A stretch of 64,000 nt of DNA from a virus (Duplodnaviria > Caudoviricetes). Each line of letters starts with the position of its first letter. The stretch's first letter is position 1. The position numbers and the translations under genes are program-made. The DNA lies in IMG/VR virus record IMGVR_UViG_3300043468_001158. One strand, 5' to 3'. The notes under the pieces were generated by a model. The model was not told where the DNA came from and did not search any database. It was given only the letters and a program-made list of their open reading frames with translations. Below, in pieces: positions 15,579 through 64,000 of the stretch.

Positions 15579-15896
15579 ATGATTACTATTGAAACTTACA
15601 AAGTCTTTCATCCTGGCATTCGACTCTATTCTAAAGGCGGAACTTATTGTCAATCATTATCTCCATGTCATTGGGGTAAGAAAGGTAAGACCTGGTCTTC
15701 TCAAGGTGCTCTTAGACGACATCTTTTCCAGTACTGTTCTGAAAATGGTTATGCTACTCAGGTTAGCATTCCAAAAGAATGGGAGGTTCATGCCATTACG
15801 ACCAATCCAACCACTGGAGTTTTAGAACTTGCAGTCTATAATGCAAGAAAGTTCTATCTCAAAACACATTTACAAACAGATGAAACTGTAGTATAA
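15579..15896 (+). CDS. Hypothetical protein
   Basis: In-frame ATG 1 bp after the previous stop. Confidence 0.5.
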   Translation: MITIETYKVFHPGIRLYSKGGTYCQSLSPCHWGKKGKTWSSQGALRRHLFQYCSENGYATQVSIPKEWEVHAITTNPTTGVLELAVYNARKFYLKTHLQTDETVV

Positions 15897-15897
15897 T
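15869..15897 (+). promoter_or_regulatory. Early sigma70-type promoter
   Basis: TTTACA-N17-TATAAT upstream of telA. Confidence 0.75.
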
Positions 15898-15930: not shown

Positions 15931-17208
15931 ATGGCCGCTTCTCCTTTTACCCCTAAACAAGCAACGTCAGATTTTGTTCAACAACAGATGAAAGATAATC
16001 AGTTCGTAATCAATAAACCACAAACACCAACAACTCCTGTAGTCAAGACATTTGCTCCAGTGACAGCACCAACGGTGCCAATATCTAATGTGCAACAAGC
16101 ATTCAATCCAGTGTCTCCAAAAGCAATTGCAGAAACGGGTGCTTCATCACATCGAGTAGTCAATTTGCTTTCAACGTTTGACAGTTCAACAGGTATCTTG
16201 GATTTTGGTAAAGATGTCATGGCGACTATTTCTTCTAAGTCTGACGAAATGCTCAAAGAAGTCAAAGATGCTGATGTTGATTTTGTCGAAACCCAAATGC
16301 GAAGCATTTTGACAATGGCCAAATCTTTACATCTTCCAAAAGCTGGTGACCATTCAAAAGATGGTGCCGGCGGTTGGCTGACTGGTTTAGTTGCAAAAGT
16401 CAAAGAAAACTTCGTTGATACTAAAGAGCAATTGTTATCTGAATTCAACAATGTATCGACCCAAATGGACCGAGTGATTGGTGAAGTCGATCAAGCAAAC
16501 CGTCGTATCATTGACAAAGTCAAAGGTTTGCAGACGATGTATCAATCAAACTTGCAAGACTACAAGAACCTGGACCAATTGATAAAGGATGCTACTGAAG
16601 CATACAATATCAAAGTCGCTGAATATGACAAGTTGCAAGCTCAAGTGACTGATGCTCTTCAAGCTCAAACTTTACAACGTATGGGTAGTAATCTTGACAG
16701 GTTAGACAAGAAGATTGCTAACATGAAAAGCTTTCAATTGATGTGCTTGCAAGATGCTCCTAATCTGGCTCAAATGGAAGACAATGCGGTTACGTTGCTT
16801 GAAAAGTTTGATACCATCAAGACAATGACTATCCCACTTTGGAAGAAGCAGATTAGGATGTTTATCGACGGGCAAGAACTCAATCGTGCGGCAAAGCTTG
16901 CATCTGCTGTTGATGATGCAAACAATGCTATGATTTCTGCGAACTCGACTGCTAACAAGCAGAATGCAATCGAAACTACTCGATTGAATCAACGTGGCAT
17001 TGTCGATATGCAGACTGCAGAACAGGTTCATGAGAACTTACTTGCTACACTAGAAGAAGTCTCTAACATCAATGCAGCTGGCCGTAAGCAACGTATCGAA
17101 AGTTCTGACCGTATGGATGAAATGAAACGACTGTATGCGTCTATTGCATCAGGTCAAACATCTGTATCGGATGCACGTGGGAAAGTGTTACCGTCTTCAC
17201 AAAACTAA
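15931..17208 (+). CDS. telA: Toxic anion resistance protein (TelA family)
   Basis: Coiled-coil, EF..VSTQMD.V, MTIPLWKKQI, A.LA.AV.DA.N..I..NS...KQ.AIET......GIVD..T pattern, in a Ter context. Confidence 0.8.
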   Translation: MAASPFTPKQATSDFVQQQMKDNQFVINKPQTPTTPVVKTFAPVTAPTVPISNVQQAFNPVSPKAIAETGASSHRVVNLLSTFDSSTGILDFGKDVMATISSKSDEMLKEVKDADVDFVETQMRSILTMAKSLHLPKAGDHSKDGAGGWLTGLVAKVKENFVDTKEQLLSEFNNVSTQMDRVIGEVDQANRRIIDKVKGLQTMYQSNLQDYKNLDQLIKDATEAYNIKVAEYDKLQAQVTDALQAQTLQRMGSNLDRLDKKIANMKSFQLMCLQDAPNLAQMEDNAVTLLEKFDTIKTMTIPLWKKQIRMFIDGQELNRAAKLASAVDDANNAMISANSTANKQNAIETTRLNQRGIVDMQTAEQVHENLLATLEEVSNINAAGRKQRIESSDRMDEMKRLYASIASGQTSVSDARGKVLPSSQN

Positions 17209-17211
17209 CCA

Positions 17212-17240
17212 TTTACTTTTGCCATCTTTTGTAGTATAAT
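17212..17240 (+). promoter_or_regulatory. Early sigma70-type promoter
   Basis: TTTACT-N17-TATAAT-AGACATAT, with CTTCACAAAA upstream. Confidence 0.7.
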
Positions 17241-17246
17241 AGACAT

Positions 17247-17606
17247 ATGAAAGTCAAACTATCAGGTAAGCAATACAAAGAATTCATGAAGGACAATGTC
17301 TTTTGGCCAGAAGGTTTATGGGTTGAAGAAGACATTCTTTCGGTTGATGATGAACCTGTTAGAGAAATTGATGAAGAGGATCTTAGCGATAGTGCAATCA
17401 TAACTATTGAAGATGGCTTTTTGAACTGTGATGATAATGCATCAGATAAAGCAAAAGCATGGCAGTTCAAATCATATCAACCGTTTATCAAGAAATGGTT
17501 ACAACAACAAACAAATCAAACACTGGTGATAGATGTTCCCAAGGAACAATACGATGAAGTTCTAACATATCTAAAAACTCATAAATGCAAAATCATACTA
17601 AAATAG
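17247..17606 (+). CDS. Hypothetical acidic protein
   Basis: 119-aa ORF directly after the promoter. Confidence 0.6.
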   Translation: MKVKLSGKQYKEFMKDNVFWPEGLWVEEDILSVDDEPVREIDEEDLSDSAIITIEDGFLNCDDNASDKAKAWQFKSYQPFIKKWLQQQTNQTLVIDVPKEQYDEVLTYLKTHKCKIILK

Positions 17607-17611
17607 AAGAC

Positions 17612-18580
17612 ATGCTTGAACAGTCATTTTGGGATTTTGATGCAGCACGCAAAGGTTATGGCGATTGGAAGAATCGTCCTCAATCAGAACGAGATGCATT
17701 CAAACAAATTGTTCGACAATTTGTCAAATTGGAATCACAATTTTCAGAAGTTGTTCTTGCTCCACCAGAACCACCACCTTGTCGTATCTTACGAGAAGGG
17801 TGTATTGATACTTGCCAAATATGTGGAAGTTCTATCAAGCATAATTGGTATGGGAAGAAGTTAGGTTGTATTCAACCTCAATGCAGTAATTTTATAAACA
17901 TAAGGTATAAACATATGGCTATTGATATAAACAAACGTGTTGCATCTGTCGGCATTGTTCTTGAAAAACGCAAGATGAACAACATTCCGTGTCAAGTCAA
18001 ACTTTGCATTGACAAATCTGGTTCAATGCAAAACTTGTATAACGATGGCACGGTACAAGATGTGGTTGAACGAGTTCTTGCGATTTCACTCAAAGTTGAC
18101 CAAGACGGAACTGTTGATGTATTTGCATTCCACAACAAAACTCAAGCTGTCAAAGCGGTGACACTTCCTTTGATGGAAAACTATGTCAAAAAAGAAATCG
18201 AAGACAAGATGGGTTGGGGTGGTACTTCTTATGCACCGGCCTTTGAAGCAATCGTCAATTCTTCTAAAGGTAAGAAAGGTTTGTTCGGCTTTGGTGCTAA
18301 ACCTGCTGATCCTACTCTGGCTATCTTCATTACTGATGGCGAAAATGATGATGCTCGTGAAGCTGAAAAAGTCATCAAAGATTCACAATCTGAAAACATC
18401 TATTGGTTGTTGATGGGTATTGGTAGTGCAAACTTTAGGTTCATCGAACAACTCGGCGACAAATATCCCAATGCTGGTTTTGTTCCAGTCAATGACATCA
18501 GTGCTATTGATGATGACGATTTATTTGAAGCGATGTTGAATGAAGAACTTGCAACATGGTTTCAAAAATTCAAAAAATAA
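17612..18580 (+). CDS. vWA-domain protein (TerF-associated vWA type) with an in-frame Cys-rich N-terminal extension; likely internal start at 17915
   Basis: MIDAS DKSGSM, GGTSYAP, FITDGE. RBS AAGGT before ATG 17915. Confidence 0.8.
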   Translation: MLEQSFWDFDAARKGYGDWKNRPQSERDAFKQIVRQFVKLESQFSEVVLAPPEPPPCRILREGCIDTCQICGSSIKHNWYGKKLGCIQPQCSNFINIRYKHMAIDINKRVASVGIVLEKRKMNNIPCQVKLCIDKSGSMQNLYNDGTVQDVVERVLAISLKVDQDGTVDVFAFHNKTQAVKAVTLPLMENYVKKEIEDKMGWGGTSYAPAFEAIVNSSKGKKGLFGFGAKPADPTLAIFITDGENDDAREAEKVIKDSQSENIYWLLMGIGSANFRFIEQLGDKYPNAGFVPVNDISAIDDDDLFEAMLNEELATWFQKFKK

Positions 18581-18583
18581 TTT

Positions 18584-18850
18584 ATGACTAATTCAGATAG
18601 ACGTTTTGAACTAGGTCTATCTTCGCTATCAGCTTTTATTCTGGCATTTTCACTCGACCCGCTTATCGGTAGTTTGTTGAGTATTATTGTTGGAATAACA
18701 GCTGGAGTTTTGATGAAGGCGAAGTTTGCTTTCATTCTTGCTATTTCAGTATTAGCGTGGATGGTGTTGATAACTACTTTTGGTTTGATGGTGACAGTTA
18801 TTTCGATGATTGTTATTTTAGCTTTACTTTATACGCTATTACCAATTTAA
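18584..18850 (+). CDS. Small multi-pass membrane protein
   Basis: Almost entirely hydrophobic, 88 aa. Confidence 0.65.
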   Translation: MTNSDRRFELGLSSLSAFILAFSLDPLIGSLLSIIVGITAGVLMKAKFAFILAISVLAWMVLITTFGLMVTVISMIVILALLYTLLPI

Positions 18851-18877: not shown

Positions 18878-19912
18878 ATGTTGAAATATTTTACGAGTTC
18901 GTTTTGGGTTGCTGGAATCGGTTTAGGTCTGGCTTTTTGGATTGGTGGCGTTCAAGCTCTTTGGATTGCTACAGTTCTATCAGTTCTTGAAGTAAGTTTG
19001 AGTTTTGATAACGCGGTTGTCAATGCTCAGGTGCTTAAGGATATGGATGCAGTATGGCGACATCGCTTCATTACGTGGGGTATGGCTATTGCAGTATTTG
19101 GTATGCGAATGCTCTTCCCACTTATCATTGTATCGATTGCATTAGGTATCAATCCAATAGCATCTTTCTTGTTAGCAGTAGCTGAACCTGAACAATATGC
19201 TCATGCTCTCGAATCAGTGCATACATCGGTCATGGGTTTTGGTGGAACATTCCTCATGATGGTCGCCTTCAAGTTCTTTATTGACGATGAAAAAGAAGTT
19301 CATTGGTTACGTCAAGTAGAATCAAAGCTGACTTTTCTTGGAAAGATTGAAGCTGTACAAGCTGCAATGACATTAGTCTTAGTATTCTTTACTTCTAAAA
19401 TCATTGGGTACTTACACGGTTCTGAAGATGAATTGTCATTCTTAATAGCAAGTATTTGGGGCTTAGTGACTTACATTTTGGTTGATGGTATTGAAGCATT
19501 CATTGGCGTTGAAGAAGGTGATGCAACTATGGCAGTTGCAAAATCTGGGTTAGCAAGCTTCTTATATCTTGAAGTGTTAGATGCTAGCTTCTCATTTGAT
19601 GGTGTTCTTGGTGCTCTTGCTTTATCTAACAACATCTTTATCATTATGATTGGTTTAGGTATTGGTGCTATGTTTGTCCGAAGCTTGACATTGCTAATGG
19701 TTGATAAAGGTACAGTTGATCAGTATCGTTATTTGGAACACGGTGCCTTCTGGGCAATCTTAGGATTGGCGGTCATTATGTTCATCAATACTGTATTCGA
19801 AATCCCTGAAACAATCACTGGTTTGATAGGTGCTGCGTTTATTGGTGCTTCAATTCTATCTTCAGTCAAACACAACAAATCTGCAATTGGCGGAATAGTT
19901 ACTAATGGTTAA
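18878..19912 (+). CDS. DUF475 / TerC-like integral membrane protein
   Basis: LEVSLSFDNAVVNA, YLEVLDASFSFDGV.GA.A, LEHGAFWAI motifs and multiple TM helices. Confidence 0.85.
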   Translation: MLKYFTSSFWVAGIGLGLAFWIGGVQALWIATVLSVLEVSLSFDNAVVNAQVLKDMDAVWRHRFITWGMAIAVFGMRMLFPLIIVSIALGINPIASFLLAVAEPEQYAHALESVHTSVMGFGGTFLMMVAFKFFIDDEKEVHWLRQVESKLTFLGKIEAVQAAMTLVLVFFTSKIIGYLHGSEDELSFLIASIWGLVTYILVDGIEAFIGVEEGDATMAVAKSGLASFLYLEVLDASFSFDGVLGALALSNNIFIIMIGLGIGAMFVRSLTLLMVDKGTVDQYRYLEHGAFWAILGLAVIMFINTVFEIPETITGLIGAAFIGASILSSVKHNKSAIGGIVTNG

Positions 19913-20327
19913 ACTAACAGGAAGAATCTTAATCGCTGATGAAGTCAATAGTAATCAGCGAATTTATCCAAAATCAGTTCTTGAAAAGATAGTTGAAGAG
20001 TGTAAAGATAAACCAATGCTTGGCCAGCTTGGAATGCCATATTGGCCAAAGACTTCAGTTGATTTAGATAGAGCAGCATTCAAATGTGAAAACTTTAGAA
20101 TGGACGGAAATGAATTGAAATGCGATATTGAATCACTTGATACTTTTCATGGTAAATTGTTTGAAGATATGGCTCAAAAAATACCGTTAGCATATTCAAG
20201 TATTGGTGTTGCAACAACTTCAACTGATGGTATTGTTGGTGATGATTTTCGTCTAACGGGAATAGCTGCAATTTCAGAACCTGATTGGTCTTTTTCAAAA
20301 ATAGGTAAAAACAATGACAACAAGTAA
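19905..20327 (+). CDS. T4 gp21-like prohead-protease-fold protein, catalytic His apparently lost
   Basis: ADEVNSNQRIYPKSVLEK, LGQLGMP (cf. LGELNHP), SSIG (cf. SSRG), DFRL.GIAAISEP. Confidence 0.65.
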   Translation: MVKLTGRILIADEVNSNQRIYPKSVLEKIVEECKDKPMLGQLGMPYWPKTSVDLDRAAFKCENFRMDGNELKCDIESLDTFHGKLFEDMAQKIPLAYSSIGVATTSTDGIVGDDFRLTGIAAISEPDWSFSKIGKNNDNK

Positions 20328-20880
20328 AAATGTAATTTCGCTCGAAAAGAAACAAACAGTCAATCTAACTAAAGCATCTGACTATCTTTCAAAAGTAAAG
20401 GTTAGGATGTCATGGGTCACCCCTACTAATGTCTTCCCTAAGTATGACTTAGATATCTCAGCCTTTCTATTGGGTGCTGATGGTAAGCTTTTATCTGAAG
20501 AAGGTTTCGTCTTCTTCAATCAAGAAGCTACACCAGACCGTTCAGTGTGGAAAACTGAAGATGAACTGTCAGGCGGTTTCGAAGAGCTTTATATCGACAT
20601 CAAAAAGCTTTCTGAAGCGGTCAAAGAAATTAGCTTGGTATCAACCATTCATAAAGCTGAACCCCGCAAGCAATCATTTGATCAGGTCAAAGATGCAAAG
20701 TTGGAAATCTTTGACCAAAATGATCAACCAATTGCGTTGTTCAACCTTGACACCTTAGCTCCTGGTTCTTGGGCAATTCAAGTCGGTTCTTTCTATCAAA
20801 CTGATGAAGGCTTTACTTTCCAAGGTATAGGTCAAGGTTTTCAGCTGGAACTTGTAGCATTTTTTGAAGGCTACAAGTAA
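20314..20880 (+). CDS. terD: TerD-family protein
   Basis: KQTVNLTK, YDLDISAFLL, FVFFNQ, EISLVSTIH, QSFDQV..A...I. Confidence 0.85.
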   Translation: MTTSKNVISLEKKQTVNLTKASDYLSKVKVRMSWVTPTNVFPKYDLDISAFLLGADGKLLSEEGFVFFNQEATPDRSVWKTEDELSGGFEELYIDIKKLSEAVKEISLVSTIHKAEPRKQSFDQVKDAKLEIFDQNDQPIALFNLDTLAPGSWAIQVGSFYQTDEGFTFQGIGQGFQLELVAFFEGYK

Positions 20881-21047
20881 GTCTAACTTGGCACAATGAC
20901 AAAAGTTTAGAGTATAATATAACTTCAATGAAACATTGTTCTAACTATACTGAATAATAAACACGGTGACCGTTATGTAATACTCTAATTGATTTTTCGT
21001 ACAAAACATAAAATTTTGATAAAACATAAAAACGAGGAAATACTCAT

Positions 21048-21614
21048 ATGGCTATAAATCTGAACAAATCTGAAGGCAGTTCAATCAATTTGACCAAATC
21101 TGCTCCAGCTCTAAAAAACATTACGGTTCATTTGTGGTGGAATGGCAACGTCAATCCAATTGACCTGGATGTATCTGCTTTCATTTTGACCAATACTCCA
21201 AATGGCCCTAAGCTGATTGGCGATGAATACTTGGTCTTCTTCAACAATGAAACACCGGCTCATGGCATTGCATGGAAAACCAAAGACGAACGTGGTAGTG
21301 GTGTTGAAGAACTCTACATCAATATCGATAAGTTGGCTGCTCAAGCCAATGCTGATGAAGTGTCGATTGTCGTAACAATCGACAAAGCTAAAGAACGTGG
21401 CCATACTTTTGGTCAAATTACTGAAGCTGGTATTAAAATCCTGAATGCTGATACAGGTGAAGAAATTGCATTCTATGACCTTGACGAACAAGGTGCTGGT
21501 GCTACTGCTTGCCAAGTCGGTTCATTCTTCAAACAAAATGGTGAATTTACTTTCGCTGGTGTTGGTGCTATGTTTGACATCGGTTTGGGTGAATTTGTCG
21601 GTGGCTATAGCTAA
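21048..21614 (+). CDS. terD: TerD-family protein
   Basis: MAINLNK..SINLTK, IDLDVSAF, LVFFNN, VVTI....TFGQI.EA.IKI.NADTGEEIA.YDL. Confidence 0.85.
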   Translation: MAINLNKSEGSSINLTKSAPALKNITVHLWWNGNVNPIDLDVSAFILTNTPNGPKLIGDEYLVFFNNETPAHGIAWKTKDERGSGVEELYINIDKLAAQANADEVSIVVTIDKAKERGHTFGQITEAGIKILNADTGEEIAFYDLDEQGAGATACQVGSFFKQNGEFTFAGVGAMFDIGLGEFVGGYS

Positions 21615-21660: not shown

Positions 21661-21692
21661 AAGGATGGATGAAAGTCCATCCTTTGTTCTTT
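21661..21692 (+). terminator. Rho-independent terminator after terD
   Basis: AAGGATGGA-TGAAAG-TCCATCCTT followed by TGTTCTTT. Confidence 0.75.
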
Positions 21693-21782: not shown

Positions 21783-22076
21783 ATGTTCAAAACTGCAATA
21801 CTAAAACTACTTGGCGAACTTGGCGACTTTTTAGCCGTTCTTTTCAAATCTGGTATTCAAAAAGAACTCAAGATTCTTTTACCAATTGCTCTAAAAGCTG
21901 TAAAAGAAGTAGCATCTGATATCACATTAGTGACCGGCGATGCTAAGTTCAATGCCGCTTTTGATATCATTGGAAAAGAACTTGGAAGCCAACAATCAGC
22001 AATTGGCCGTTCGCTTGTTAATCTTGCAATCGAGTTAGCATACCAAAAATTCTTGGATGCAGCTCCTACCAAATAA
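21783..22076 (+). CDS. Amphipathic small protein, possibly LL-H-holin-like
   Basis: G.AKF.AA...I...L......VNLAIELAYQKF resembles the LL-H holin C-terminal pattern. Strong RBS and late motif. No clear long TM helix. Confidence 0.4.
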   Translation: MFKTAILKLLGELGDFLAVLFKSGIQKELKILLPIALKAVKEVASDITLVTGDAKFNAAFDIIGKELGSQQSAIGRSLVNLAIELAYQKFLDAAPTK

Positions 22077-22097
22077 CCATATTCTCTACAAAGTATT

Positions 22098-22280
22098 ATG
22101 AACAAAAAAGAATCAGACCGTCTAAAGGCAGCAGCCAGAAAAGTATCAAAGATTGATACCGCAACCAATGTAAACCAACCTGCAATGCCTTCTAATGATG
22201 GAAGTCTTTGTTGTGGAGCAATACATCCATGGATTGTTTGGGGAACAGCTTTAGTAATAATGTTATTCATTATCATCTAA
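22098..22280 (+). CDS. Small protein with a C-terminal TM helix
   Basis: WIVWGTALVIMLFIII. Confidence 0.5.
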   Translation: MNKKESDRLKAAARKVSKIDTATNVNQPAMPSNDGSLCCGAIHPWIVWGTALVIMLFIII

Positions 22281-22420
22281 GTAAAGACTAAAGGTTATAC
22301 AGGGCTGCCGGGTTTCATCCTTAAAACGTCACGGCAGCACAACTCTTTTCTATTGGCTCAAATAAATTTCTAAGACGTTAGCCAGTCGTCTTGTCAAAAT
22401 CGACAAAGGAGTATCATCTC

Positions 22421-23200
22421 ATGGTCTATAAAAAGAACTTCGCTCTTGCGATAAAAGCACACGGCAAAATCCTACGTGAAAGTGGAGAACAAGTCTTCCT
22501 ACCTTATGGTTGCGAATACTCTATCGTTCTCAAAAATCTACATTCCAAAAAAGCTTCTGTCAAGGTTTGGATTGATGGACAGTTAGTCACTGAAGGCTGT
22601 TCGCTAATCATCAAACCAAATGAATCTATTGACTTAGAACGATTCATTAGAAATGGTAATCTTACTTCAGTTGGCAATCGATTCAAGTTCATTGAAAGAA
22701 CTGAATCAATTGAAAATCATCGCGGCATTAAGATTGATGATGGTCTTGTTCGAATTGAATACCAGTTCGAAAGACAAGTGCAGCCAATTCCGACACCAAT
22801 GATGCAACCAACTTATCGTCATTATCCACCTGTTTGGACATCAACTGTTCGTGGAATGGTACCAGGTCAATCAATTGGTGATGAAGGATTTTTTGGTGGC
22901 CAAGTATCAGAAATTTTAGCTTGTAACGCTCACTCGTCAGTAGCATCGGTATCAAATGTCGGTATCACTGTTGAAGGTAGTATCTCTGACCAAGCATTTG
23001 AAACCTGTCTGCCACTTTGGTTAGAAGATGAAGTTCATGCAATGACACTTCAGCTAGTTGGAGAAGTAGCACAAAGTGGGGTAAGAGTTGAAAAGCCTAT
23101 CACCGTAAAAGCTAAACCGACTTGCAAGACTTGTGGAAAGTTGAATAAAGCTACATCAAAGTTTTGTAGTAATTGTGGAACTTCTCTTCAAATTGTATAA
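22421..23200 (+). CDS. Hypothetical protein with a C-terminal double zinc ribbon
   Basis: RBS AAGGAG before ATG 22421. C-terminus CKTCG..N...SKFCSNCG. Confidence 0.7.
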   Translation: MVYKKNFALAIKAHGKILRESGEQVFLPYGCEYSIVLKNLHSKKASVKVWIDGQLVTEGCSLIIKPNESIDLERFIRNGNLTSVGNRFKFIERTESIENHRGIKIDDGLVRIEYQFERQVQPIPTPMMQPTYRHYPPVWTSTVRGMVPGQSIGDEGFFGGQVSEILACNAHSSVASVSNVGITVEGSISDQAFETCLPLWLEDEVHAMTLQLVGEVAQSGVRVEKPITVKAKPTCKTCGKLNKATSKFCSNCGTSLQIV

Positions 23201-23203
23201 ATA
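23196..23203 (+). promoter_or_regulatory. T4-type late promoter motif (TATAAATA)
   Basis: 31 bp upstream of ATG 23234. Confidence 0.6.
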
Positions 23204-23233
23204 CAATACACTTTTATGTAAGGAGAATAACCA

Positions 23234-23431
23234 ATGCAAGACGATTTATCAATTTTTCTAAATGCTGCTTCTAAAAAAGACTATCGTATAGATTTCAAAC
23301 TTTCTTCAGAAGAAGCCCCAGTACCTGCTCCTGTTGTAGTTCCTGAACCAGTTGTAGTTCCTGAACCAGTTGTAGTTCCAGCTCCAGTTGTAGTTCCTGA
23401 ACCTGAAGTAATTATTCCGGAAGCAGTATAA
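23234..23431 (+). CDS. Small Pro/Val-rich repeat protein
   Basis: AAGGAG RBS and a (P[EA]PVVV)n tail. Confidence 0.7.
   Translation: MQDDLSIFLNAASKKDYRIDFKLSSEEAPVPAPVVVPEPVVVPEPVVVPAPVVVPEPEVIIPEAV
23324..23413 (+). repeat. 18-bp coding tandem repeat x5
   Basis: Unit CCTGAACCAGTTGTAGTT and variants. Confidence 0.9.
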
Positions 23432-23442
23432 TATTATAAAGC

Positions 23443-23473
23443 AATATGAGAGTTATAACCTAACTCTCATATT
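23443..23473. terminator. Perfect 13-bp hairpin (probable terminator)
   Basis: AATATGAGAGTTA-TAACC-TAACTCTCATATT. Confidence 0.65.
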
Positions 23474-23482
23474 CTATTACTC

Positions 23483-23490
23483 AATAAATA
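23483..23490 (+). promoter_or_regulatory. T4-type late promoter motif (AATAAATA)
   Basis: 46 bp upstream of ATG 23536. Confidence 0.45.
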
Positions 23491-23535
23491 GTTTATCTTT
23501 ATCATAAACTAAAATACAAGCAAGAGAGTAATAGT

Positions 23536-23751
23536 ATGAGACTAAATCAATTATCGTCTGACAATATTGAACTACCAACTGAAAATATTTTATTTGAGCG
23601 TAATCCTCTAAATATCCCAGTTGAAGACATTGACATTAGAAAACCTTTAGGTATATCTGATGAAAGATGGACTGAAGAATTTATAGAAGATCTTAAAGAA
23701 ATGAAAATATCTCGTCCAGATTTGTTTAGAAAAATAATGCTAGGACTTTAA
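23536..23751 (+). CDS. Hypothetical protein
   Basis: 71-aa ORF preceding the AAA gene. Confidence 0.55.
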   Translation: MRLNQLSSDNIELPTENILFERNPLNIPVEDIDIRKPLGISDERWTEEFIEDLKEMKISRPDLFRKIMLGL

Positions 23752-23771
23752 CTACAGGGAGTTAAACCAAA

Positions 23772-26636
23772 ATGAAGTTCTCACACCTCACACCTAAAAA
23801 ATCTTCTACTGACACCGTCGATATGACTATATTGGAAATGGCAGCACCAAGAAAAAACAAAAGTGTTCAACCCGGTGGAAATGCTTTGGGTAATGGACCT
23901 GAAGCGGTTTCTGAAAAAATTCCAGAGTTCAAACCGAAAAGTTCATCACTTGAACAAACTGTTGAATTGTTTGAAGACATTCTCGAAAACATGGCAAATA
24001 AGCGTGACTTTAAACAGTACGCTGGTATGCTTTTGACCGGTGACCCAGGAACAGGTAAAACACAACGTATTAACTTACTTGCAAAAGTATTAGGTATTGA
24101 CCTTATTACTGTTGAAGCACCACATATTGTTGAAGAACATATTATCAATATTCCATTTATTGTTTTTGATACTTCAAAAAATAAAGAAACTGCTGAATCT
24201 ACTTCACTGAAACGATCAAAAGATAAAGAAAATAATTTATATAAAGTAGTATTAGCTGATAGCAATTTATATACTGCATTGAAAAAAGTTAATATTGTTT
24301 CAGATAATGAACATTTGAAAAATATATACAAAAACTCTAAAGATGTAATTGCGACATATGAAGCTTTAGGTGGAACTCCAACTGAATTACCAGAAGAGAT
24401 TTCAGATATTCGTAAACAATTCAAGGTTATTCTTTTTCTTGATGAATATTTTCGTCAAAATTCTCCGCGTATTAAAAATATGTTACGTGGCATTCTAAAT
24501 GGTAAGATTGGTAATCATGACATCCCAAAAAGTGCTTATGTTGTTTACGCTTCTAATATGCATGACGAAGGTCTTTCAGAAATACAAAAGAACTTCCAGT
24601 TTGAAAATGTTGAAATTAAAAACCCATCAAAAGACGAATGGTTTACTTGGTTAGTCAATAAGTTTGAAGATGATAAACACATTAGATTGAAACCTGCTTT
24701 AATCAATAGATTTCATCATATTTTAGATGATGAAGACATGAGCCATAACGATATTGCGTCTGATGTTAGAACTTCGCCACGTCGTTGGGAACAGTTATTA
24801 CTTTATATCAATGCATCGCTTCCGGCAAAAGATGAAAAAGATGCAATTAATTTGATGACAAACGTTAAAACTAATTTTAGAAATTATCTTGAAGGTGATC
24901 ATTCAAGTTTAGCTAAAAAAGTTCTTGAAGCTACAGCAACTTTGATACATGAAACTTCTGGATTTGAAGTTTCAGCTACAGCTCAAAACTCTGCATCTGA
25001 TTGGCGAAATACCTTAAAACATCAAATTGAAACCAAGATGAAACTTGGTGATATGCGTAAGTATGTTCCTATTATTGCTGGTCTTCCAGGTATCGGTAAA
25101 ACTGCACAAGCATATGATTTGGCTAAAGAATTAGATCTTCGCTTTATTGACCTTGATTGTTCAACACTTACTTCTGAAGATGTTTCAGGTTTACCATTAC
25201 CATCTTCAAATGAAGATGATCCAGATGGCATTGAAACAATTTTTTCAATGCCATCTTTATATCAGCTATTGATGCAAAAAATCAAGGAAGAAGATAAAAA
25301 GTATTTGAAGAAACTAGAAAAAGAATTTCCAAAAGATTTTAATGAAAAGAAAAAAGAATATGAATCTAGACAATATAAATATCTTATTTTCTTTGACGAG
25401 TTGAATAGAAATTCTCCAAAAGTATTCAACGGCATTAGACGAGTATTGCTTGAAAAGAACTTTGGACCAAGTGATAAAGGAAACGGAAAATTATTAGAAC
25501 TTCCATCTTCTGCTATTATGCTAGGTGCTATTAACCCTGATGATACTGGAGCTGAACGTCTTACTAAACATATGCAAGATGTTCTTGATATCATGGATGC
25601 AAAAAGTTCTTGGAAAGATACTTTAAGTTATTTATCTCATGAGAAAAACGAAATACCAGATGCGCCTAAAGAAATACATCAATTGTCTTTAGCAATTGTT
25701 AAATTATTGGCTAACAAATTTGAAACTAAATCGCCAGAAGTTGCGGCAGATCATCGTCCGTTCTTTTGGGACCTTGGAAAACATGGTGAAGGTCAAGAAA
25801 TTTATATTTCGCCGCGTGAATATAATCAGTTATATGTTGGTATGGGGAGATCTATTAATCGACAAATGAATAAGATTAAAAAACTTGATCTTAATTCGAT
25901 GAAGCAAGAAGAATTGATGCAATTAGAAGGTAAAGTACGTGCAAAGATTTTTAAAGCAATAAAGAAAAATACCAAATTTATTTTGTTTAAACATAACGCA
26001 GTTGAAGATTTCTTCTATCATGATTTAGAAGCATATATTATGCATAGTGATGATATTGATTTAGGTGAAAATTTCTTTTATAGAAAAGCAGTCAATGTTA
26101 AAGAAATTTCATTAGACAAAGTAATCGGAAAATATTTAGAAGGTGGTTCAGATAAAATAGCTGAAAATGATTCGTTTTTAGTTTATTTGCAAAATGCTGA
26201 CATTCAAACACTTAGAGAAAATTTAGCAGACGTACTTACTAGTAAAATTGATAATGATGCATCAGTAAAGAAATTTATCTTTGATCATGACCACCCTGTA
26301 CTAAGACTTGCTGTTAATGATAAACTGTTTACTAAAAAAGATTTGAGTAACGATGTACTTCCCAACGGGATTATATTAGATGAGTCTAAAAAAGTATCTT
26401 TACTTGAAAACTTTTTTAGAGGTGTTGCGTTTTCATTACAGATACATTCGATTGCGAACGATAGGATTAATGTCATATTGATCGCCGCATTAGATGCAGC
26501 TGGAGTTATCCACAAAAACTTCAAGACTGATCAAGAGGAAGAAGATGGCATTGAAAGTGAAATATCTAAGTTGCAAATCATGGCATCTAAAATCACAAAA
26601 CGTCTTGCAAAATCTGATGAATTGCCAGATGCATAA
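23772..26636 (+). CDS. Tandem (two-module) AAA+ ATPase, MoxR/dynein-related type
   Basis: Walker A GDPGTGKT and GLPGIGKT, Walker B ILFLDE and LIFFDELNR, sensor-1 ASN and AIN. Confidence 0.85.
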   Translation: MKFSHLTPKKSSTDTVDMTILEMAAPRKNKSVQPGGNALGNGPEAVSEKIPEFKPKSSSLEQTVELFEDILENMANKRDFKQYAGMLLTGDPGTGKTQRINLLAKVLGIDLITVEAPHIVEEHIINIPFIVFDTSKNKETAESTSLKRSKDKENNLYKVVLADSNLYTALKKVNIVSDNEHLKNIYKNSKDVIATYEALGGTPTELPEEISDIRKQFKVILFLDEYFRQNSPRIKNMLRGILNGKIGNHDIPKSAYVVYASNMHDEGLSEIQKNFQFENVEIKNPSKDEWFTWLVNKFEDDKHIRLKPALINRFHHILDDEDMSHNDIASDVRTSPRRWEQLLLYINASLPAKDEKDAINLMTNVKTNFRNYLEGDHSSLAKKVLEATATLIHETSGFEVSATAQNSASDWRNTLKHQIETKMKLGDMRKYVPIIAGLPGIGKTAQAYDLAKELDLRFIDLDCSTLTSEDVSGLPLPSSNEDDPDGIETIFSMPSLYQLLMQKIKEEDKKYLKKLEKEFPKDFNEKKKEYESRQYKYLIFFDELNRNSPKVFNGIRRVLLEKNFGPSDKGNGKLLELPSSAIMLGAINPDDTGAERLTKHMQDVLDIMDAKSSWKDTLSYLSHEKNEIPDAPKEIHQLSLAIVKLLANKFETKSPEVAADHRPFFWDLGKHGEGQEIYISPREYNQLYVGMGRSINRQMNKIKKLDLNSMKQEELMQLEGKVRAKIFKAIKKNTKFILFKHNAVEDFFYHDLEAYIMHSDDIDLGENFFYRKAVNVKEISLDKVIGKYLEGGSDKIAENDSFLVYLQNADIQTLRENLADVLTSKIDNDASVKKFIFDHDHPVLRLAVNDKLFTKKDLSNDVLPNGIILDESKKVSLLENFFRGVAFSLQIHSIANDRINVILIAALDAAGVIHKNFKTDQEEEDGIESEISKLQIMASKITKRLAKSDELPDA

Positions 26637-58032: not shown

Positions 58033-61000
58033 TTACAATCCACCTTGTCTAAGAACTGATGCATTCAATTCAGCAACAAGTTCAATGTCACTTAGCTGAG
58101 CACATGATTGAAGTATTTCATCAAGTCCTGAACTTACAGTAAATAAAGAACCAAATGAATTCACTGCATAAATTGGAACAAGAACTACAGATGCAATTTC
58201 AGTTGGAAGTCTTTGGTGTATCAATGAGAACAATTCGGTTGCATAGAAAGTTTCGCCAAAGTCCCAGTTCTCAATTCCAAAGTAAGAGTTGATAACGGCA
58301 AGAACTTCAATCTTTAACTTCTCATCGGATAATGTTGATGTAATGGCTTTAACAACTTTGAATTTTGCACGGAACTGAGGTTCAGCTAATGCGCCAAACA
58401 GTAACTTAATCTTGCCAGGATGCAAGACCACAGTATCCGATAACATTTTGTTATCAAGCAAGTCTGCAAATTGATTACGTAATTCAAGAGGTGTTGGTGG
58501 TGTCGGCAATACTAAAGTTCGTCCTTGTACATAGTTACTAATCGAGTTATAATAACCTTGAGTAAGAACGTAAGTATCATGAATGTTAGACACTGACGGG
58601 TCAATCAAGTTTTCGTATGGCGTAAAGTGTTGCCACATAAAGTCAAGTGTCGTTCTTTTTAGAGTTCTTCCATAATAAACACCACCAATTTTTGCATTAC
58701 TAACAAAACTTCCAGGAGCAAAGTAAGTTGTGGGGTCAAATGTTATATTAGCTGCATTTATTTCTGTTCCTGGAACTCTGATGCCTGAACTATCAAGTTG
58801 AAAGTATTCATAGTAATTACTTTCATTAGAAGCTGCTTCTGAAAACTCAGCAAATTGAAGAACACTATCCGGCAAAGTATTACCTGAAGTATCAATGTTT
58901 AACATATCCGATGGAATAACTTCAAGAGCATGCAAATTGACTATACCATTACTATCAACTATTGGTCCAACTACATCATAGTTTTCATTATGTCCAAGTG
59001 GTCTTCCGTCAGGTTTCAAATTAGAACGCAATACTCGTATAGTATCATATACTCGATTTTTTGTTTGCGAGTCAATAATTTGAACTCCGGCATTATACCA
59101 AAACTTAGTATTCTGACTTGATACTTGTAACTTCAGTTCACGGAAATTGACAGTGAAACTGGTTGGCAATTGAGTTATAGGATTGAGAGTTGCTTTGACC
59201 CATATTAGCCATGAATTAGGATTTCTTACTCCAGGTGATATGTATAAAGTCGGGTCATAAGGAAGGACGTTTGGGTTGACTGTATTTCCCGAAGTAAGGT
59301 CAATACCATCAATCAATTCCCAACGACCGAGTAAGTTCAGTGTTGACACATTACTTGATGCTAGTGTAAATGCATATGGTCCCGGACCAACATCAGCTAC
59401 TAAGTCAAGCGAATAACTTATCTTGATTGCATCACCTGGCATTACTTGATAACTTGCAGTTGATAATTGTGATAAGGTAAAATCAATAGTATCAGAAGTA
59501 AAAGGTAAGTTCATCTCACCTGTGCCAATATACCCACGAAGATTTGAACTAACATGAAGTAATGAACCGTTAGCAGCAACTTCAATCGTAATAACTTCTG
59601 CACCATATGTTAATGCATCAACTAAAATACGAGAAGTTAGTTGTCCAGTAAAGGTCAAGTCAGTCCCAACAATAGGAGTATGACGATTGAACGCAAGACC
59701 GAACTGAGATTGCCATGCAACTGATTGAAGACCTGAACCAACATCTCCAGGGATGTAAGGGTTTATACCGTCAATAGTTCGAGCAACAGTGTTTAGCCAT
59801 ATCTTCCCGTCATCCTCTGGATGTAACCCTGGGTCTTGTATACGTGCATATGAAATACCACTTATCGTTACAAAGTCAAGAGGTTCTCCATACCAATGTT
59901 GGTCAATTGCACCCTGTATCAATGTCTTTTCTTGAAGTGCACTTCGTTGACCAGTAGAATTCCAGTAGAGTTGTCTATTATCTTCAATGAATTGACGTCG
60001 TGTCAAACTTACCATGCCTGATGTAAGTGGGTCAGTTGAAGAAATATGTGCAAGCGTATTGATGATACCTGTAGATGATAGAAGAGGTTCAATGATTTCA
60101 TCAATCAATCCTCGACTTGAAGTACTTGTTCCAGTTGAAAGAGAATTGATACCAAGTGCTAAGTCAATTGTCAAATCGTCGCCAAATAGTTTGATGTTTT
60201 GATATTGACCAGAAGCATCGTTCCATTCAATGTATTTTGGTTGCCCTGCAAAAGTTCTATTCACTGAAGTCAATCTAAGAATAGATTGGTCTTTCAACAT
60301 ATAAGTATTGTAATCTTGAGCATTCACCATTCTATTTTGAGCATAGTATGTTGAAGGTGCAGATTGACGAATATGTTCAATACTTTCTGAAGCAGCAGAG
60401 TTTTGAATAGTTGATGTAAGCGAGAATGTCATACCACATGTTTCTGCCATACCTGTTGTAGGAGAAACATATTGAAACGCAAGTGGCTGATTGATAAGTC
60501 TATTTGTTGGAATGACGATACTTCTATTAGCTGATTGACGCATCCAAAAGAAGAAGCGACCTACAGGAATATCTGAGAAGTCGCCATCGCCAAACATCAA
60601 TTTAATTGCATCATTCTCTAAAGTTTCTACTTCAAACTTTTTACGATTTTTGATGATATTGAATGATAAGTTTTGGTCCGCTAAAGTTTCTACTTCTTCC
60701 CAAATTTCTTCGATTGCTCCAGAAGAACTAACTCGTGTAACCCATACATCTGTATCATTGACATTGATTGGAGCTAATGATAACGCTCTATTCGGAATTG
60801 CTTCATTCATAACATATTCCAAACGGGTCAAGACACCTTGCTTAGCATACATCAAAAAGCCAGTATAATCAGAACCATCACCAAGCCCATCATTTGAATA
60901 GATAACTGAAAGTTGTGAATTGACATCTGGAGTCTTTTCATACGGTCCATTTGAGTCTAACAAAACTGGCACAAGTTCCATTGGGAATGTTTCGATTCCA

Positions 61001-61602
61001 GTATCAACATTGAACGAGAAGATACCATTAGGAATAGTATTCAAAGAATTGTTGAATGTATAGAGCTGCATTGATACATCGCCAATCTGTTGAAGACTTG
61101 CAAACTGTCCAAAGCTACCGGTCAAACATCTATTCATGACTAAGAAGAAACGTTCTTTCCAAAGTGGAGAATTAGGGTCATTCCAAATGATGTTCAGCCC
61201 CGCTAAGTTGACGCCTTGGGAATCGATTACTCGTTCAGTAGTAGAGATTGAAGTAATCTTGACTAAACCACGAGCCGGGATATTGCGAGAAGGTGCATAC
61301 GATATTAGTTTCGCTAACTTTAGAATTGATTGCTTTCTTTGCGCTGTACTAATAAAGTTTTCATGCGATAACATATCAACTCGATAAGCTAATTGTTCTG
61401 CAACATATGCAAAGCTTTCAATTAAAGTAATTAGCTCAGAACTTTCAATAAAGTCGTTGAAACTTTCTGGAAAGTAAATGCGAATATAATCAATGATACT
61501 TAGTTTAATTGTGCTATAATCATACGCTGCAAAATTGATTTGCGAAAACGCTTGATATATCTTAGTCCAGCTTTCAGCTTGATAAAGGTTTTTGATTGAC
61601 AT
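58033..61602 (-). CDS. gp6: Baseplate wedge subunit (T4 gp6-like, with a large insertion)
   Basis: DY.TIK..IIDYIR.YFPE.FNDFIESSELI.LIE, SESIEHIRQSAP..Y.AQNRMV...DY, WDFGE.FY. Confidence 0.9.
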   Translation of the reverse strand: MSIKNLYQAESWTKIYQAFSQINFAAYDYSTIKLSIIDYIRIYFPESFNDFIESSELITLIESFAYVAEQLAYRVDMLSHENFISTAQRKQSILKLAKLISYAPSRNIPARGLVKITSISTTERVIDSQGVNLAGLNIIWNDPNSPLWKERFFLVMNRCLTGSFGQFASLQQIGDVSMQLYTFNNSLNTIPNGIFSFNVDTGIETFPMELVPVLLDSNGPYEKTPDVNSQLSVIYSNDGLGDGSDYTGFLMYAKQGVLTRLEYVMNEAIPNRALSLAPINVNDTDVWVTRVSSSGAIEEIWEEVETLADQNLSFNIIKNRKKFEVETLENDAIKLMFGDGDFSDIPVGRFFFWMRQSANRSIVIPTNRLINQPLAFQYVSPTTGMAETCGMTFSLTSTIQNSAASESIEHIRQSAPSTYYAQNRMVNAQDYNTYMLKDQSILRLTSVNRTFAGQPKYIEWNDASGQYQNIKLFGDDLTIDLALGINSLSTGTSTSSRGLIDEIIEPLLSSTGIINTLAHISSTDPLTSGMVSLTRRQFIEDNRQLYWNSTGQRSALQEKTLIQGAIDQHWYGEPLDFVTISGISYARIQDPGLHPEDDGKIWLNTVARTIDGINPYIPGDVGSGLQSVAWQSQFGLAFNRHTPIVGTDLTFTGQLTSRILVDALTYGAEVITIEVAANGSLLHVSSNLRGYIGTGEMNLPFTSDTIDFTLSQLSTASYQVMPGDAIKISYSLDLVADVGPGPYAFTLASSNVSTLNLLGRWELIDGIDLTSGNTVNPNVLPYDPTLYISPGVRNPNSWLIWVKATLNPITQLPTSFTVNFRELKLQVSSQNTKFWYNAGVQIIDSQTKNRVYDTIRVLRSNLKPDGRPLGHNENYDVVGPIVDSNGIVNLHALEVIPSDMLNIDTSGNTLPDSVLQFAEFSEAASNESNYYEYFQLDSSGIRVPGTEINAANITFDPTTYFAPGSFVSNAKIGGVYYGRTLKRTTLDFMWQHFTPYENLIDPSVSNIHDTYVLTQGYYNSISNYVQGRTLVLPTPPTPLELRNQFADLLDNKMLSDTVVLHPGKIKLLFGALAEPQFRAKFKVVKAITSTLSDEKLKIEVLAVINSYFGIENWDFGETFYATELFSLIHQRLPTEIASVVLVPIYAVNSFGSLFTVSSGLDEILQSCAQLSDIELVAELNASVLRQGGL

Positions 61603-61644
61603 GTTAGTTAGATATTCCGTGTCGGCGAATGAAATGCGATATTG

Positions 61645-61652
61645 TATTTATT
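61645..61652 (-). promoter_or_regulatory. T4-type late promoter motif (AATAAATA)
   Basis: 43 bp upstream of ATG 61602. Confidence 0.5.
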
Positions 61653-61672
61653 AGGAATAGCATAAGATAATC

Positions 61673-62050
61673 CTATGCACTGGTTTTGACTTCTATTTTT
61701 AGCATATCTTGAACTCCAAACTCAAGATAGAAAACATCGACTAAACCGAGGATAACATTATTATCAGTTAATGAAACTACTTGCATATCAACCAATCTTA
61801 CACGCGGGTCATATTCTATTACGTAACGAAGGTCATCTTCTATGATCTTACGAGTATTCTCATCATTTGGTTCAAACGTAAGTAAAGGAATACGAGTTCC
61901 AAACGTGGGCATCATTACTCTATCACCTTTAGCAGTAAAGATGTGGTTGTATAAGTCTTGCTTGACTACTTCAAAGTTAGAGATACCAAACTGTTTAGAG
62001 CTCATCCACTTATTAGAAGAGAAGCCATGATACAAAGTTTTGAATGCCAT
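61673..62050 (-). CDS. gp25: Baseplate wedge/sheath-initiator (gp25/GPW family)
   Basis: VKQDL.NHIFT.KG.RVMMP.FG..I..L.FEP....I..DL..VI.YDPRV. Confidence 0.9.
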   Translation of the reverse strand: MAFKTLYHGFSSNKWMSSKQFGISNFEVVKQDLYNHIFTAKGDRVMMPTFGTRIPLLTFEPNDENTRKIIEDDLRYVIEYDPRVRLVDMQVVSLTDNNVILGLVDVFYLEFGVQDMLKIEVKTSA

Positions 62051-62057
62051 TTACTTA

Positions 62058-63296
62058 TTATCCTTTATAATGCGAATTGCGATTTTTGTTTGCGGGTCTA
62101 ACGAAAGGTTCATGCGATGGAACAATAGATGCACCCGATGCTTCTTGTGCACATTCACCTGCTGCAGCGGGTCCACCTGGTAAGATACGTTCGTCTTTGT
62201 CAGCATCGGTTGGCGTTGTTTCTACTGCCGCAGTAATCTTACTTCCTTGCATAGCAAATAAACCCAAACTTTTGATATCAACTGTGTCACCAGTCAAACG
62301 GGTTTTTGTACCAACTAAGTCTAATGTACATCCTGTCGCAGCAAGAGTTGCTCCGGCTTTAATATGTACATTCCCACCCTGAACCCTAGTATCTGCTTCG
62401 CTTTTGATGTTGATACCAGTCTTTGCTTCAAGATTAATGTTACGACCTGCCGCTAAGTTAATGTCTTCTTCTGCTCGCACTGAGATAGACTTTGCCCCAT
62501 ACATATGAATGTGTCCGTCTTCATCAAGTTCTACCCAAGTATTACCTGAAGCAGTTGATATGTAGATACGTTCGTTAGTATCGTCAAGAATGATTTGATT
62601 GCCTTCACAAGTCTTGACTCTTATTCGACAGTTATCAGCAGTGTCGTTCATTGTGATGACATGATGACCTGGAGTTACCCAACAATAAGTTTGCGGGTCA
62701 AGATACTCAGTTGGGTCAGCCGCTGCCGGTGCATATCCTTCATTCCCGTCTGGGTGAAGTTTTGGTTGGGCAACTTGTCGTTCACTTACCCCACGAGTTT
62801 GAGCGATTGGATTACTTACGTCTCCATTGAAAGCTGCACGTAAGTTAGAGTAAGCAGGTTCCAGAGGGTCATACGAGTCGGTAAACGGGCCAACTGTTGT
62901 TTCATCAGGTTTCTTATTTCTTCCAGAAGGTAGTCCTCTATTTCGATGTAAGTCATACGCCGCAGCAAAGAAGAACCTTCGATTAGGATTACCATTCAGA
63001 AGAAAGACTAACACTTGAGAATTGAGTTTAGGTAAGCAATAGAAACCATAAGGTACAGGTCCTTTAGGTGCTTTTCTATTTCGACCAGCTGGGAAGTCAT
63101 TAGTAACTCCACCAAAAGGTGCTGCATATTCTGCCCAAGGTAATTGGCTAATATTATAAGACTCACCATCTAAAGCTGGACACCATACTTTCATTCTTCC
63201 CATTTGATTTGGGTCGTCCGTATCCATCACGAAACCATTAGTGATAAATGGAAAATGATTTTGATATCGATTTAGGATTGATTTATTAGTTTGCAT
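62058..63296 (-). CDS. Baseplate central spike (gp5/VgrG-like OB fold + beta-helix, no lysozyme domain)
   Basis: G.V.DT.DP...GR.KVWCP.LD, LPWA, P.LNSQVLV.L..G.P, TPGHH.I.M.D, G.QIILDD. Confidence 0.85.
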   Translation of the reverse strand: MQTNKSILNRYQNHFPFITNGFVMDTDDPNQMGRMKVWCPALDGESYNISQLPWAEYAAPFGGVTNDFPAGRNRKAPKGPVPYGFYCLPKLNSQVLVFLLNGNPNRRFFFAAAYDLHRNRGLPSGRNKKPDETTVGPFTDSYDPLEPAYSNLRAAFNGDVSNPIAQTRGVSERQVAQPKLHPDGNEGYAPAAADPTEYLDPQTYCWVTPGHHVITMNDTADNCRIRVKTCEGNQIILDDTNERIYISTASGNTWVELDEDGHIHMYGAKSISVRAEEDINLAAGRNINLEAKTGINIKSEADTRVQGGNVHIKAGATLAATGCTLDLVGTKTRLTGDTVDIKSLGLFAMQGSKITAAVETTPTDADKDERILPGGPAAAGECAQEASGASIVPSHEPFVRPANKNRNSHYKG

Positions 63297-64000
63297 TATT
63301 CACACCTTCTTGTGCCTTTAGCGTACTTATTGCACCATAATTATGTTGCATTATTAGTATAAGTTCTTGCGTAAAATCACTTCCGCTAAAAGTATGAACA
63401 ACTGATTGTATCATATACCAATCATCATAAAATAGTTTGACTTTGTATTCATCTACATTACCTTCTTGGTTGAATGGATAATCTCGTGGTCCATATACAT
63501 TCACTTTAGCGAATTGGGTTTCTCCTAAAAACTTCTTATCAATCATTTGACGTTCAACAAACTTACGATGTTCAAGATGAGCTTGAACAATACTTCCATT
63601 TCCAGTTGCAGCGGTTTCATTCTTAGGGTCGTATTCCCATTTAGATAATTTGTCAATATAAGATGCATCGCCATTTTCAATATAGTCTTTGACCGAAGTA
63701 GTAATTTTTGGAACAGGAGCAATTGCTTCAACTACGAAGTTAGAAAATAAGTTAGGGTTTCCTCGAATTTTGACACTTGTTGTTCCCATTGCAAAATGCA
63801 TATCTGCCAAAGTTTGATGAAATGCTTGCGCATTTTTAAATACTTCTTTTGCTAATGGATTATTCGTAGGTGCAACATCTGCCTGATTAGAACGTTGAGT
63901 AGTTGTTTTTGGCGGTAGATACATAGGCTGATTTTTACCAGGATTCCCAACGAATGTTTTCTTATCAACTTCAGGAGAAAGTTTATCTTTCTTCTTTTGA
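63286..64000 (-). CDS. Baseplate hub (gp27-like) C-terminal part, 5'-truncated
   Basis: The frame stays open past ATG 63924 to the window end. IRGNP and WYMIQSVVHTFSGSDFTQEL are typical of hub C-termini. Confidence 0.65.
   Translation of the reverse strand, partial: QKKKDKLSPEVDKKTFVGNPGKNQPMYLPPKTTTQRSNQADVAPTNNPLAKEVFKNAQAFHQTLADMHFAMGTTSVKIRGNPNLFSNFVVEAIAPVPKITTSVKDYIENGDASYIDKLSKWEYDPKNETAATGNGSIVQAHLEHRKFVERQMIDKKFLGETQFAKVNVYGPRDYPFNQEGNVDEYKVKLFYDDWYMIQSVVHTFSGSDFTQELILIMQHNYGAISTLKAQEGVNNAN

Follow-up and report, generated by a model that had tools for sequence, protein, structure and literature searches.

Why should the tellurite-resistance-like (Ter) stress operon of a freshwater giant phage carry a relative of the protease that matures phage heads? 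The question is raised by a 64,000-nt stretch of viral DNA (Duplodnaviria; Caudoviricetes; IMG/VR record IMGVR_UViG_3300043468_001158), called the window here. On its plus strand, at 19905..20327, an open reading frame (ORF) of 140 amino acids (aa) lies between the genes of a DUF475/TerC-family membrane protein and of TerD1, which we call the type A position. A sequence-only reading had taken the ORF for a dead paralogue of the T4 prohead protease gp21, far from any head genes and co-opted as a binding module or a decoy. Our analysis makes it very probable that the product, hereafter the mini-protease, is a conserved non-catalytic mini-domain derived from a T4-type prohead protease (peptidase family S77): it comprises the beta-rich core (about residues 40-182 of gp21), has no propeptide region, C-terminal tail, catalytic His or catalytic Asp, and does not conserve the nucleophile position. 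Our preferred account of what it does, a partnership with TerD1, is more tentative and is weighed further on. L-numbers denote the contigs or loci that we compared and P-numbers the representatives of the protein family.

The motifs that had been noticed by eye (VNSNQRIYP..LEK, GQLGMP, SSIG and GIAAISEP) are all present in the translation, and the homology they suggested is upheld by every comparison of profile and structure. The mini-protease matches Pfam PF03420 (Peptidase_S77) with 31.8 bits (cut-off 27; E 1.3e-7), its sole Pfam match, as well as the PHROG family of head maturation proteases (phrog_207, E 2e-13) and, with phmmer, T4 gp21 itself (PDB 5JBL, E 1.6e-6). It also matches about 1,400 gp21 genes of cultured phages at 30-35% identity. 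When the family of short proteins to which it belongs was aligned with true S77 proteases, profile against profile, hhalign gave a probability of 99.9% (E 1e-32). The AlphaFold2 model, built from an alignment with 66 relatives, has a pLDDT of 95.3 and a pTM of 0.87, and the chains of 5JBL are its top Foldseek matches and its sole strong ones (E 3.7e-8, TM-score 0.71, root-mean-square deviation 2.8 Å); herpesvirus proteases come next, weakly. The similarity is far beyond chance, and the mini-protease is a true homologue of T4 gp21. It covers residues 40-182 of gp21 only, the N-terminal ~39 and the C-terminal ~30 residues being missing. The missing N-terminal part includes the propeptide, which in the gp21 zymogen blocks the active site (PMC9958956). 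Cys61 and Cys73 (window 20085-20123) lie on adjacent predicted strands; they are invariant in five close orthologues and rare in the wider family, and could form a clade-specific disulfide or metal site. The gene is tightly packed between its neighbours, as expected from the translational coupling proposed earlier: it starts with an ATG within the final codons of the DUF475 gene, an 8-nt overlap with the stop of that gene (19912) in the string ATGGTTAA, and its last 14 nt overlap the start of TerD1 at 20314.

The catalytic residues are where the mini-protease departs from its relatives. In 5JBL positions 85 and 140 are both Ala, as in H85A/S140A, the published inactive mutant of T4 gp21 (PMC12991175). 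In the mini-protease, Met44 (within GQLGMP) aligns with catalytic His85 and is invariant in the five orthologues, and Ala121 aligns with the invariant Asp of the D-x-V-x-x-P-S strand, of which the P-S motif is missing too. The nucleophile is harder to place. Of four alignments, two (the one with the phage's own protease and the family's hidden Markov model alignment) match Ser98 to Ser140, and two (phmmer, hhalign) put it one or two residues away. The Ser140 column, Ser in the ORF by the first two alignments, is Pro in two close orthologues out of five and Arg in 112 of the 148 family members (76%); the neighbouring Ser99 is invariant among the five. The only His of the ORF, H82, is Gln in three of these orthologues, and the set has no conserved His. 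We also considered the S-H motif after the GMP loop as a source of an alternative catalytic His, and rejected it: true proteases have S-H as well, T4 does not, and the clade of the window has A-F there. With Met44 for His85, Ala121 for Asp and no conserved His, a working Ser-His-Asp site is excluded. Judged by its residues, the protein is a gp21 homologue and not a functional peptidase, as the term dead had implied.

The phage has a separate head protease, which we reached by stepping from one metagenome contig to the next through identical encoded proteins. Contig L018 overlaps window positions 59692-64000 at 100% identity and encodes, ~14.9 kb past the window end, Portal_T4 and then a 206-aa S77 protein in which the motifs GELTHP, GVSSRGTG and VDIVDNPS are all intact. 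The true gp21 gene, adjoining that of the portal, is therefore ~59 kb downstream of the ORF and outside the window, which bears out the distance from the head genes. The two proteins are only 27% identical. The mini-protease is thus a gp21 homologue separate from the genuine gp21, as the word paralogue had implied, although not a recent dead copy of the phage's own protease; it belongs instead to an old and large family of short proteins. Judged by the baseplate wedge protein (48% identity), the closest relative in culture is Ralstonia phage RsoM2USA, which has one true gp21 and no second copy. Just 3' of the true gp21 (L018:19840-21542, ~15.5-17 kb past the window end) are three ORFs of 158-208 aa with no Pfam matches; the stretch after gp21 is the expected place of scaffold or core proteins.

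The family came to light when 1.84 billion representatives were searched with a profile built from the five close orthologues. At E<=1e-3 this matched 1,081 proteins, of which the top 150 are mostly of 120-140 aa, and the phage-encoded short family (about 120-145 aa) has at least 148 cluster representatives. None of the 148 has the full His/Ser/Asp triad and 113 have lost every one of its residues; Met fills the His column in 82 and Asn the Asp column in 67, besides the Arg already mentioned in the Ser column. The motifs N-x-N-x-R-x-Y-P, G-x-x-G, T-P-x-G and G-x-G, which are common to true proteases, are near-invariant all the same, as expected if fold and binding surface were kept while catalysis was lost. 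In a phylogenetic tree nine true proteases split from the short family (SH-aLRT 96), which is consistent with one origin of the latter. The family has a motif set of its own (G-x-[IL]-G-M-P, F-R-x-x-G-x-G and I-N-A-V), by which the ORF is a member, in the subgroup with A-F for S-H. The clade of the window differs from the rest of the family in having Ala rather than Asn at the Asp column, in its D-W-S-F-S-K tail, and in being fixed inside the Ter operon beside TerD1, a context not seen for the other members sampled. We take the family to be an old and large one of short triad-less S77-like proteins in uncultured jumbo and T4-like phages.

Searches of cultured phages with tblastn returned genuine gp21 genes alone, at a single site in each record, and no short-family member. 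A typical family member used as tblastn query turned up a single short copy, that of the uncultured phage LR756511 (595 kb), whose genome encodes a true protease as well. There (LR756511.1, L012:5860-6750) the short-family domain occupies residues ~49-171 of a 297-aa ORF that continues for ~125 aa at its C-terminal end and has no Pfam match. In IMG/VR the single ORF protein retrieved no related loci and an exact DNA pattern search no match, while a 15-row alignment used as query retrieved 80 loci, namely 78 true proteases and, as the only short-family members, L019 and L020. The contigs of P0010, P0011 and P0012 are short and give little gene context. A Tat-like N-terminal signal (RRxFL and a hydrophobic stretch) is present in 22 of the 148 representatives (~15%), for example P0009, P0021, P0024, P0054, P0096 and P0124, and would put a head-protease fold in the periplasm; one member of this type is on a 241-kb contig that bears a T4-type major capsid gene. 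At L019:1443-2042, L020:6400-6981 and L009:6132-6599, a mini-protease gene is ~0.5-1.5 kb from that of a cell-wall hydrolase (GH108 with PG_binding_3 twice, Peptidase_M23 once). Together with the TerC neighbour in the window, the Tat-like signals and the lysin neighbours of non-Ter members hint at an envelope theme.

Is the gene maintained by selection? The ratio of nonsynonymous to synonymous substitution rates (dN/dS) of the mini-protease is 0.43-0.58, significantly less than 1 (Fisher p 0.001-0.02). No orthologue seen, down to 30-40% identity, has a broken frame, and 73 of the 140 columns are invariant among the five closest. Among the three type A phages the adjacent Ter genes have a dS of 0.43-1.07, roughly twice that of the ORF (0.22-0.40), and a lower dN. 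The low dS could reflect constraint at the nucleotide level, recent recombination or noise from 96 synonymous sites; an 86-aa reverse-strand ORF at 20095-20355 was considered as its source.

The mini-protease gene has a recurrent genomic partner, TerD1. Two contigs, L003 and L004, have orthologues of 65-79% identity in the same slot as in the window. A second arrangement, in which the mini-protease is between two TerD genes, was found on contigs of TerD1 homologues: L103, whose DUF475 protein is 95% identical to that of the window, L100, whose TerD1 is 85% identical, and L101/L102, jumbo contigs of up to 369 kb in which TerD1 is only 58% identical. In all, a family member is beside TerD1, on either side, in 4/6 sampled Ter-bearing jumbo-phage lineages, and the approximately unbiased test does not reject monophyly of the Ter-linked members (p-AU 0.75). 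The comparison with L103 is the most telling. The DNA of the two phages is 88-96% identical on both flanks of 19883-20892, while this block reads [mini-protease, TerD1] in the window and [TerD1, mini-protease] in L103; within it TerD1 has 77% nt identity and the mini-protease 37% aa identity. Near-identical flanks around such a block indicate that the two genes are exchanged, and diverge, together, and they seem to have been swapped as one cassette between related phages. Synteny with ter genes recurs across Ter-bearing lineages, but most members sampled outside the lineage of the window are not Ter-linked. When the complex of the two proteins was predicted, from alignments of 26 rows for TerD1 and 66 rows for the mini-protease, the score was 0.00, which is no evidence either way.

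We favour, tentatively and at somewhat less than even confidence, the reading that the mini-protease is a non-cutting protein- or peptide-binding subunit working with TerD1 in an early, membrane-associated Ter module. It would be made from the same operon as TelA, the vWA/TerF protein, a small membrane protein, the DUF475/TerC protein and two TerD proteins; it would work specifically with TerD1 and not in head maturation; and it would give the Ter module a target-recognition or regulatory surface. We infer the binding function, the partnership with TerD1 and the early expression. A co-opted binding module, as proposed from the sequence, fits what is conserved, namely fold and motifs without catalysis, and the pairing with TerD1, itself conserved, makes a role within the Ter module the first to consider, ahead of a decoy. 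Several results weigh against this reading. Early expression is a prediction from consensus motifs. The 314-kb contig L104 and RsoM2USA have Ter genes and no mini-protease, so that a Ter module works without it. Sampled members outside the lineage of the window are mostly near lysins or uncharacterised genes and not near Ter genes, which, with the ~15% of Tat-like signals, suggests that the general activity of the family is not Ter-specific. Lastly, the neighbours TelA, DUF475 and the TerD genes have dN/dS values of 0.08-0.23, so that of the mini-protease is 3-5 times higher; together with its turnover between near-identical phages, this suits a conflict or specificity factor at least as well as a housekeeping subunit. 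High turnover, elevated dN/dS and mostly non-Ter contexts in the family keep readings based on conflict alive.

One of these makes the mini-protease an anti-defence decoy or substrate trap, which would keep the substrate groove of gp21 and either occupy the bait loops of host immune sensors that prohead-protease cleavage switches on, such as the activation loops of CBASS CD-NTases, or mask the protease signal, so that late gp21 triggers no abortive infection. The idea is now concrete because gp21 cleavage activates CD-NTases: the activity of T4 gp21 is enough to switch CBASS on, through cleavage of a loop that contains I/LxE (Hobbs and Kranzusch 2026 preprint, PMC12991175), activation loops are conserved in >1,300 CD-NTases (PMC12991175), and mutations that allow escape from CBASS have been mapped to prohead proteases (bioRxiv 10.1101/2023.05.21.541620). 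A decoy would also account for motifs kept while the triad was lost, and for the raised dN/dS and cassette turnover, both typical of conflict genes; expression from a likely early operon would have the protein present before gp21 activity. However, nothing in the analysis ties the mini-protease to a host sensor, and the specific, repeated pairing with TerD1 is left unexplained, as are the Tat-like signals, which lead to the periplasm and away from CD-NTases. A stoichiometric trap would moreover need high expression, and we regard the decoy as unlikely. The mini-protease might instead modulate prohead proteases by binding gp21-type pentamers, restraining the phage's own enzyme before proheads form or poisoning that of a superinfecting T4-like rival in a form of Ter-mediated exclusion. 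T4 gp21 forms a pentamer and has to be kept in check until assembly (PMC9958956), the mini-protease has kept the core fold, jumbo-phage Ter operons have been proposed to counter superinfecting phages (PMC7824862), and diverged protease paralogues of phiKZ-like phages have been discussed in the context of head assembly (PMC5694885). Such a modulator is quite improbable given an identity of 27% to the phage's own gp21, the loss of both terminal regions, the position of the gene in a non-late operon ~59 kb from the head genes, and Tat-exported relatives that cannot meet a cytoplasmic protease.

Two less probable explanations are a relic and a cryptic enzyme. The gene could be without function, a leftover from the duplication of a protease gene that the operon simply carries, a possibility in keeping with its dN/dS, higher than in the neighbours, and its absence from some related Ter clusters. 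Yet every copy seen has an intact frame, dN/dS is significantly below 1, 73/140 columns are invariant among the five orthologues and the model is well defined (pLDDT 95); about a thousand profile matches in the family, the best 150 mostly short, and the exact protein in 85 blocks of the contig index also speak against decay. The relic is already disfavoured by these observations, and we consider it very unlikely. Even more so is a peptidase that is still active through Ser98 or Ser99 with other catalytic residues: a Ser is in or beside the nucleophile column and Ser99 does not vary among the five close orthologues, but no His is conserved (H82 being Gln in three of them), the Asp column is Ala, Ser98 gives way to Pro in two orthologues, and the family consensus at the nucleophile column is Arg.

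The operon itself runs, on the plus strand, in the order TelA, 119-aa protein, vWA-TerF, 88-aa membrane protein, DUF475/TerC, mini-protease, TerD1, TerD2, so that Ter genes flank the ORF on both sides and the description of it as embedded in a Ter operon is correct. The TelA-family protein (15931..17208, 425 aa; PF05816, E 3.5e-49) is followed by the conserved 119-aa protein (17247..17606; phrog_4254), found at the same position in L103 and L005, the vWA-TerF-like protein (17585..18580, 331 aa; PF10138, E 6e-42) and, at 18584..18850, a protein of 88 aa whose translation is strongly hydrophobic, as of a membrane protein. Next are the DUF475/TerC-family integral membrane protein (18878..19912, 344 aa; PF04332, E 7.5e-102; PF03741, E 8.7e-18) and, past the mini-protease, TerD1 (20314..20880, 188 aa; PF02342, E 4e-41) and TerD2 (21048..21614, 188 aa; PF02342, E 5e-37). 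A megablast search of this region against cultured phages gave no match. The best DUF475 match, L002, is high-GC bacterial DNA and was set aside as irrelevant.

The signals around these genes suggest, as patterns, that the operon is expressed early. A consensus scan gave a candidate sigma-70-like promoter 5' of TelA (15869..15897, plus strand; TTTACA-17-TATAAT, 11/12 matches; pattern only) and a second such site at 17212, although the total of promoter-like sites in the Ter region is no higher than in shuffled sequence. A terminator-like hairpin (10-bp stem, T-rich tail; again pattern only) is 3' of TerD2 at 21661..21684 on the same strand, and the late-promoter motif TATAAATA is absent between 15.9 and 21.7 kb. 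Metatranscriptome libraries from two freshwater studies contain the stretch with the ORF at 100% identity, which is presence in RNA libraries and not proof of transcription; the stretch is also in many lake and freshwater metagenomes, and the index blocks with the exact protein are the 85 cited above. Among RNA-library contigs (X5-X7), word depth in two libraries is 42-51 from 14000 to ~22700 and 2-6 at 22860-24000, with the reverse in a third library (16 vs 22); uncovered stretches and differences in depth between such contigs are unusable for ranking genes. The TATAAATA motif does occur at 23196, and a boundary between temporal classes may lie near 22062-22860, of which contig depths are no proof. 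Farther 3' of the TerD genes (window 22391-26636) are encoded a ~260-aa protein with a terminal zinc ribbon and a 912-969-aa tandem AAA+ protein (MoxR/AAA_5-like), both kept in every Ter-bearing contig examined, including L003, L004, L103 and L104. MoxR-type ATPases are the usual partners of vWA proteins, and the functional Ter module may therefore extend to these two genes.

With these results the Ter system gains a new and testable accessory, and the pseudoprotease family its first consistent genomic partner. There is a T4-type family of mini-proteins that is separate from, and much larger than, the phiKZ-like paralogues; one branch of it has become a recurrent, cassette-like partner of TerD in jumbo-phage Ter operons, in a phage that keeps an intact protease elsewhere. 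Since prohead-protease activity has recently proved to be a major trigger of CBASS, non-cutting look-alikes are obvious candidates for immune evasion or inter-phage competition, roles that can be tested with existing assays. A broader conjecture, which we consider improbable, is that short dead gp21-like proteins are a widespread counter-measure or exclusion tool against protease sensing: they would bind the I/LxE-type loops that prohead proteases cut, shielding those of CBASS CD-NTases or, in Ter-linked and Tat-exported forms, recognising components of rival phages, and in a Ter-based module the cassette with TerD1 would determine specificity and be swapped rapidly.

How does the mini-protease compare with known systems? 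It shares with T4 gp21 (S77, PF03420, 5JBL) the fold and the motifs NxNxRxYP, GxxG, TPxG and GxG, and differs from it in the absence of both termini, of His85 and of the Asp, in a nucleophile column that is not conserved, and in its place outside the head module. The phiKZ-like giant phages likewise have a second, short copy of the head protease: SPN3US gp117, 201phi2-1 gp206 and PhiPA3 gp143 are diverged paralogues of 136-145 aa, truncated at the C-terminus (PMC5694885, Ali et al. 2017). SPN3US gp117, however, keeps Ser and Asp, whereas the ORF has lost His and Asp. The short-family profile had no match at E<=1 in the genomes of SPN3US and 201phi2-1, a result that, with no positive control inside them, speaks of distance only. 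We regard these paralogues as analogous, but probably a separate lineage.

On the side of the operon, the closest parallels are the abbreviated Ter operons of Caulobacter and Ralstonia jumbo phages (TelA, vWA-TerF, TerC, TerD; PMC7824862), which have the same gene set and order as the window. These modules have been proposed to act at the membrane against superinfecting or competing phages, or in stress tolerance (PMC7824862). The Ter components listed there (Iyer et al. 2021) include no protease-fold gene, whereas the operon in the window has one, as do only some lineages; with PF03420 as its sole Pfam match, the ORF belongs to none of the described Ter families (TerD, TerC, TelA, TerF, TerB). 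We found no paper on a T4-type short family of such size, on its placement beside TerD or on its joint exchange with TerD1. Dead head-protease paralogues in giant phages have been known since 2017 and jumbo-phage Ter operons since at least 2021; what is new is the size of the T4-type short family, its recurrent placement beside TerD, and its joint exchange with TerD1 as a cassette.

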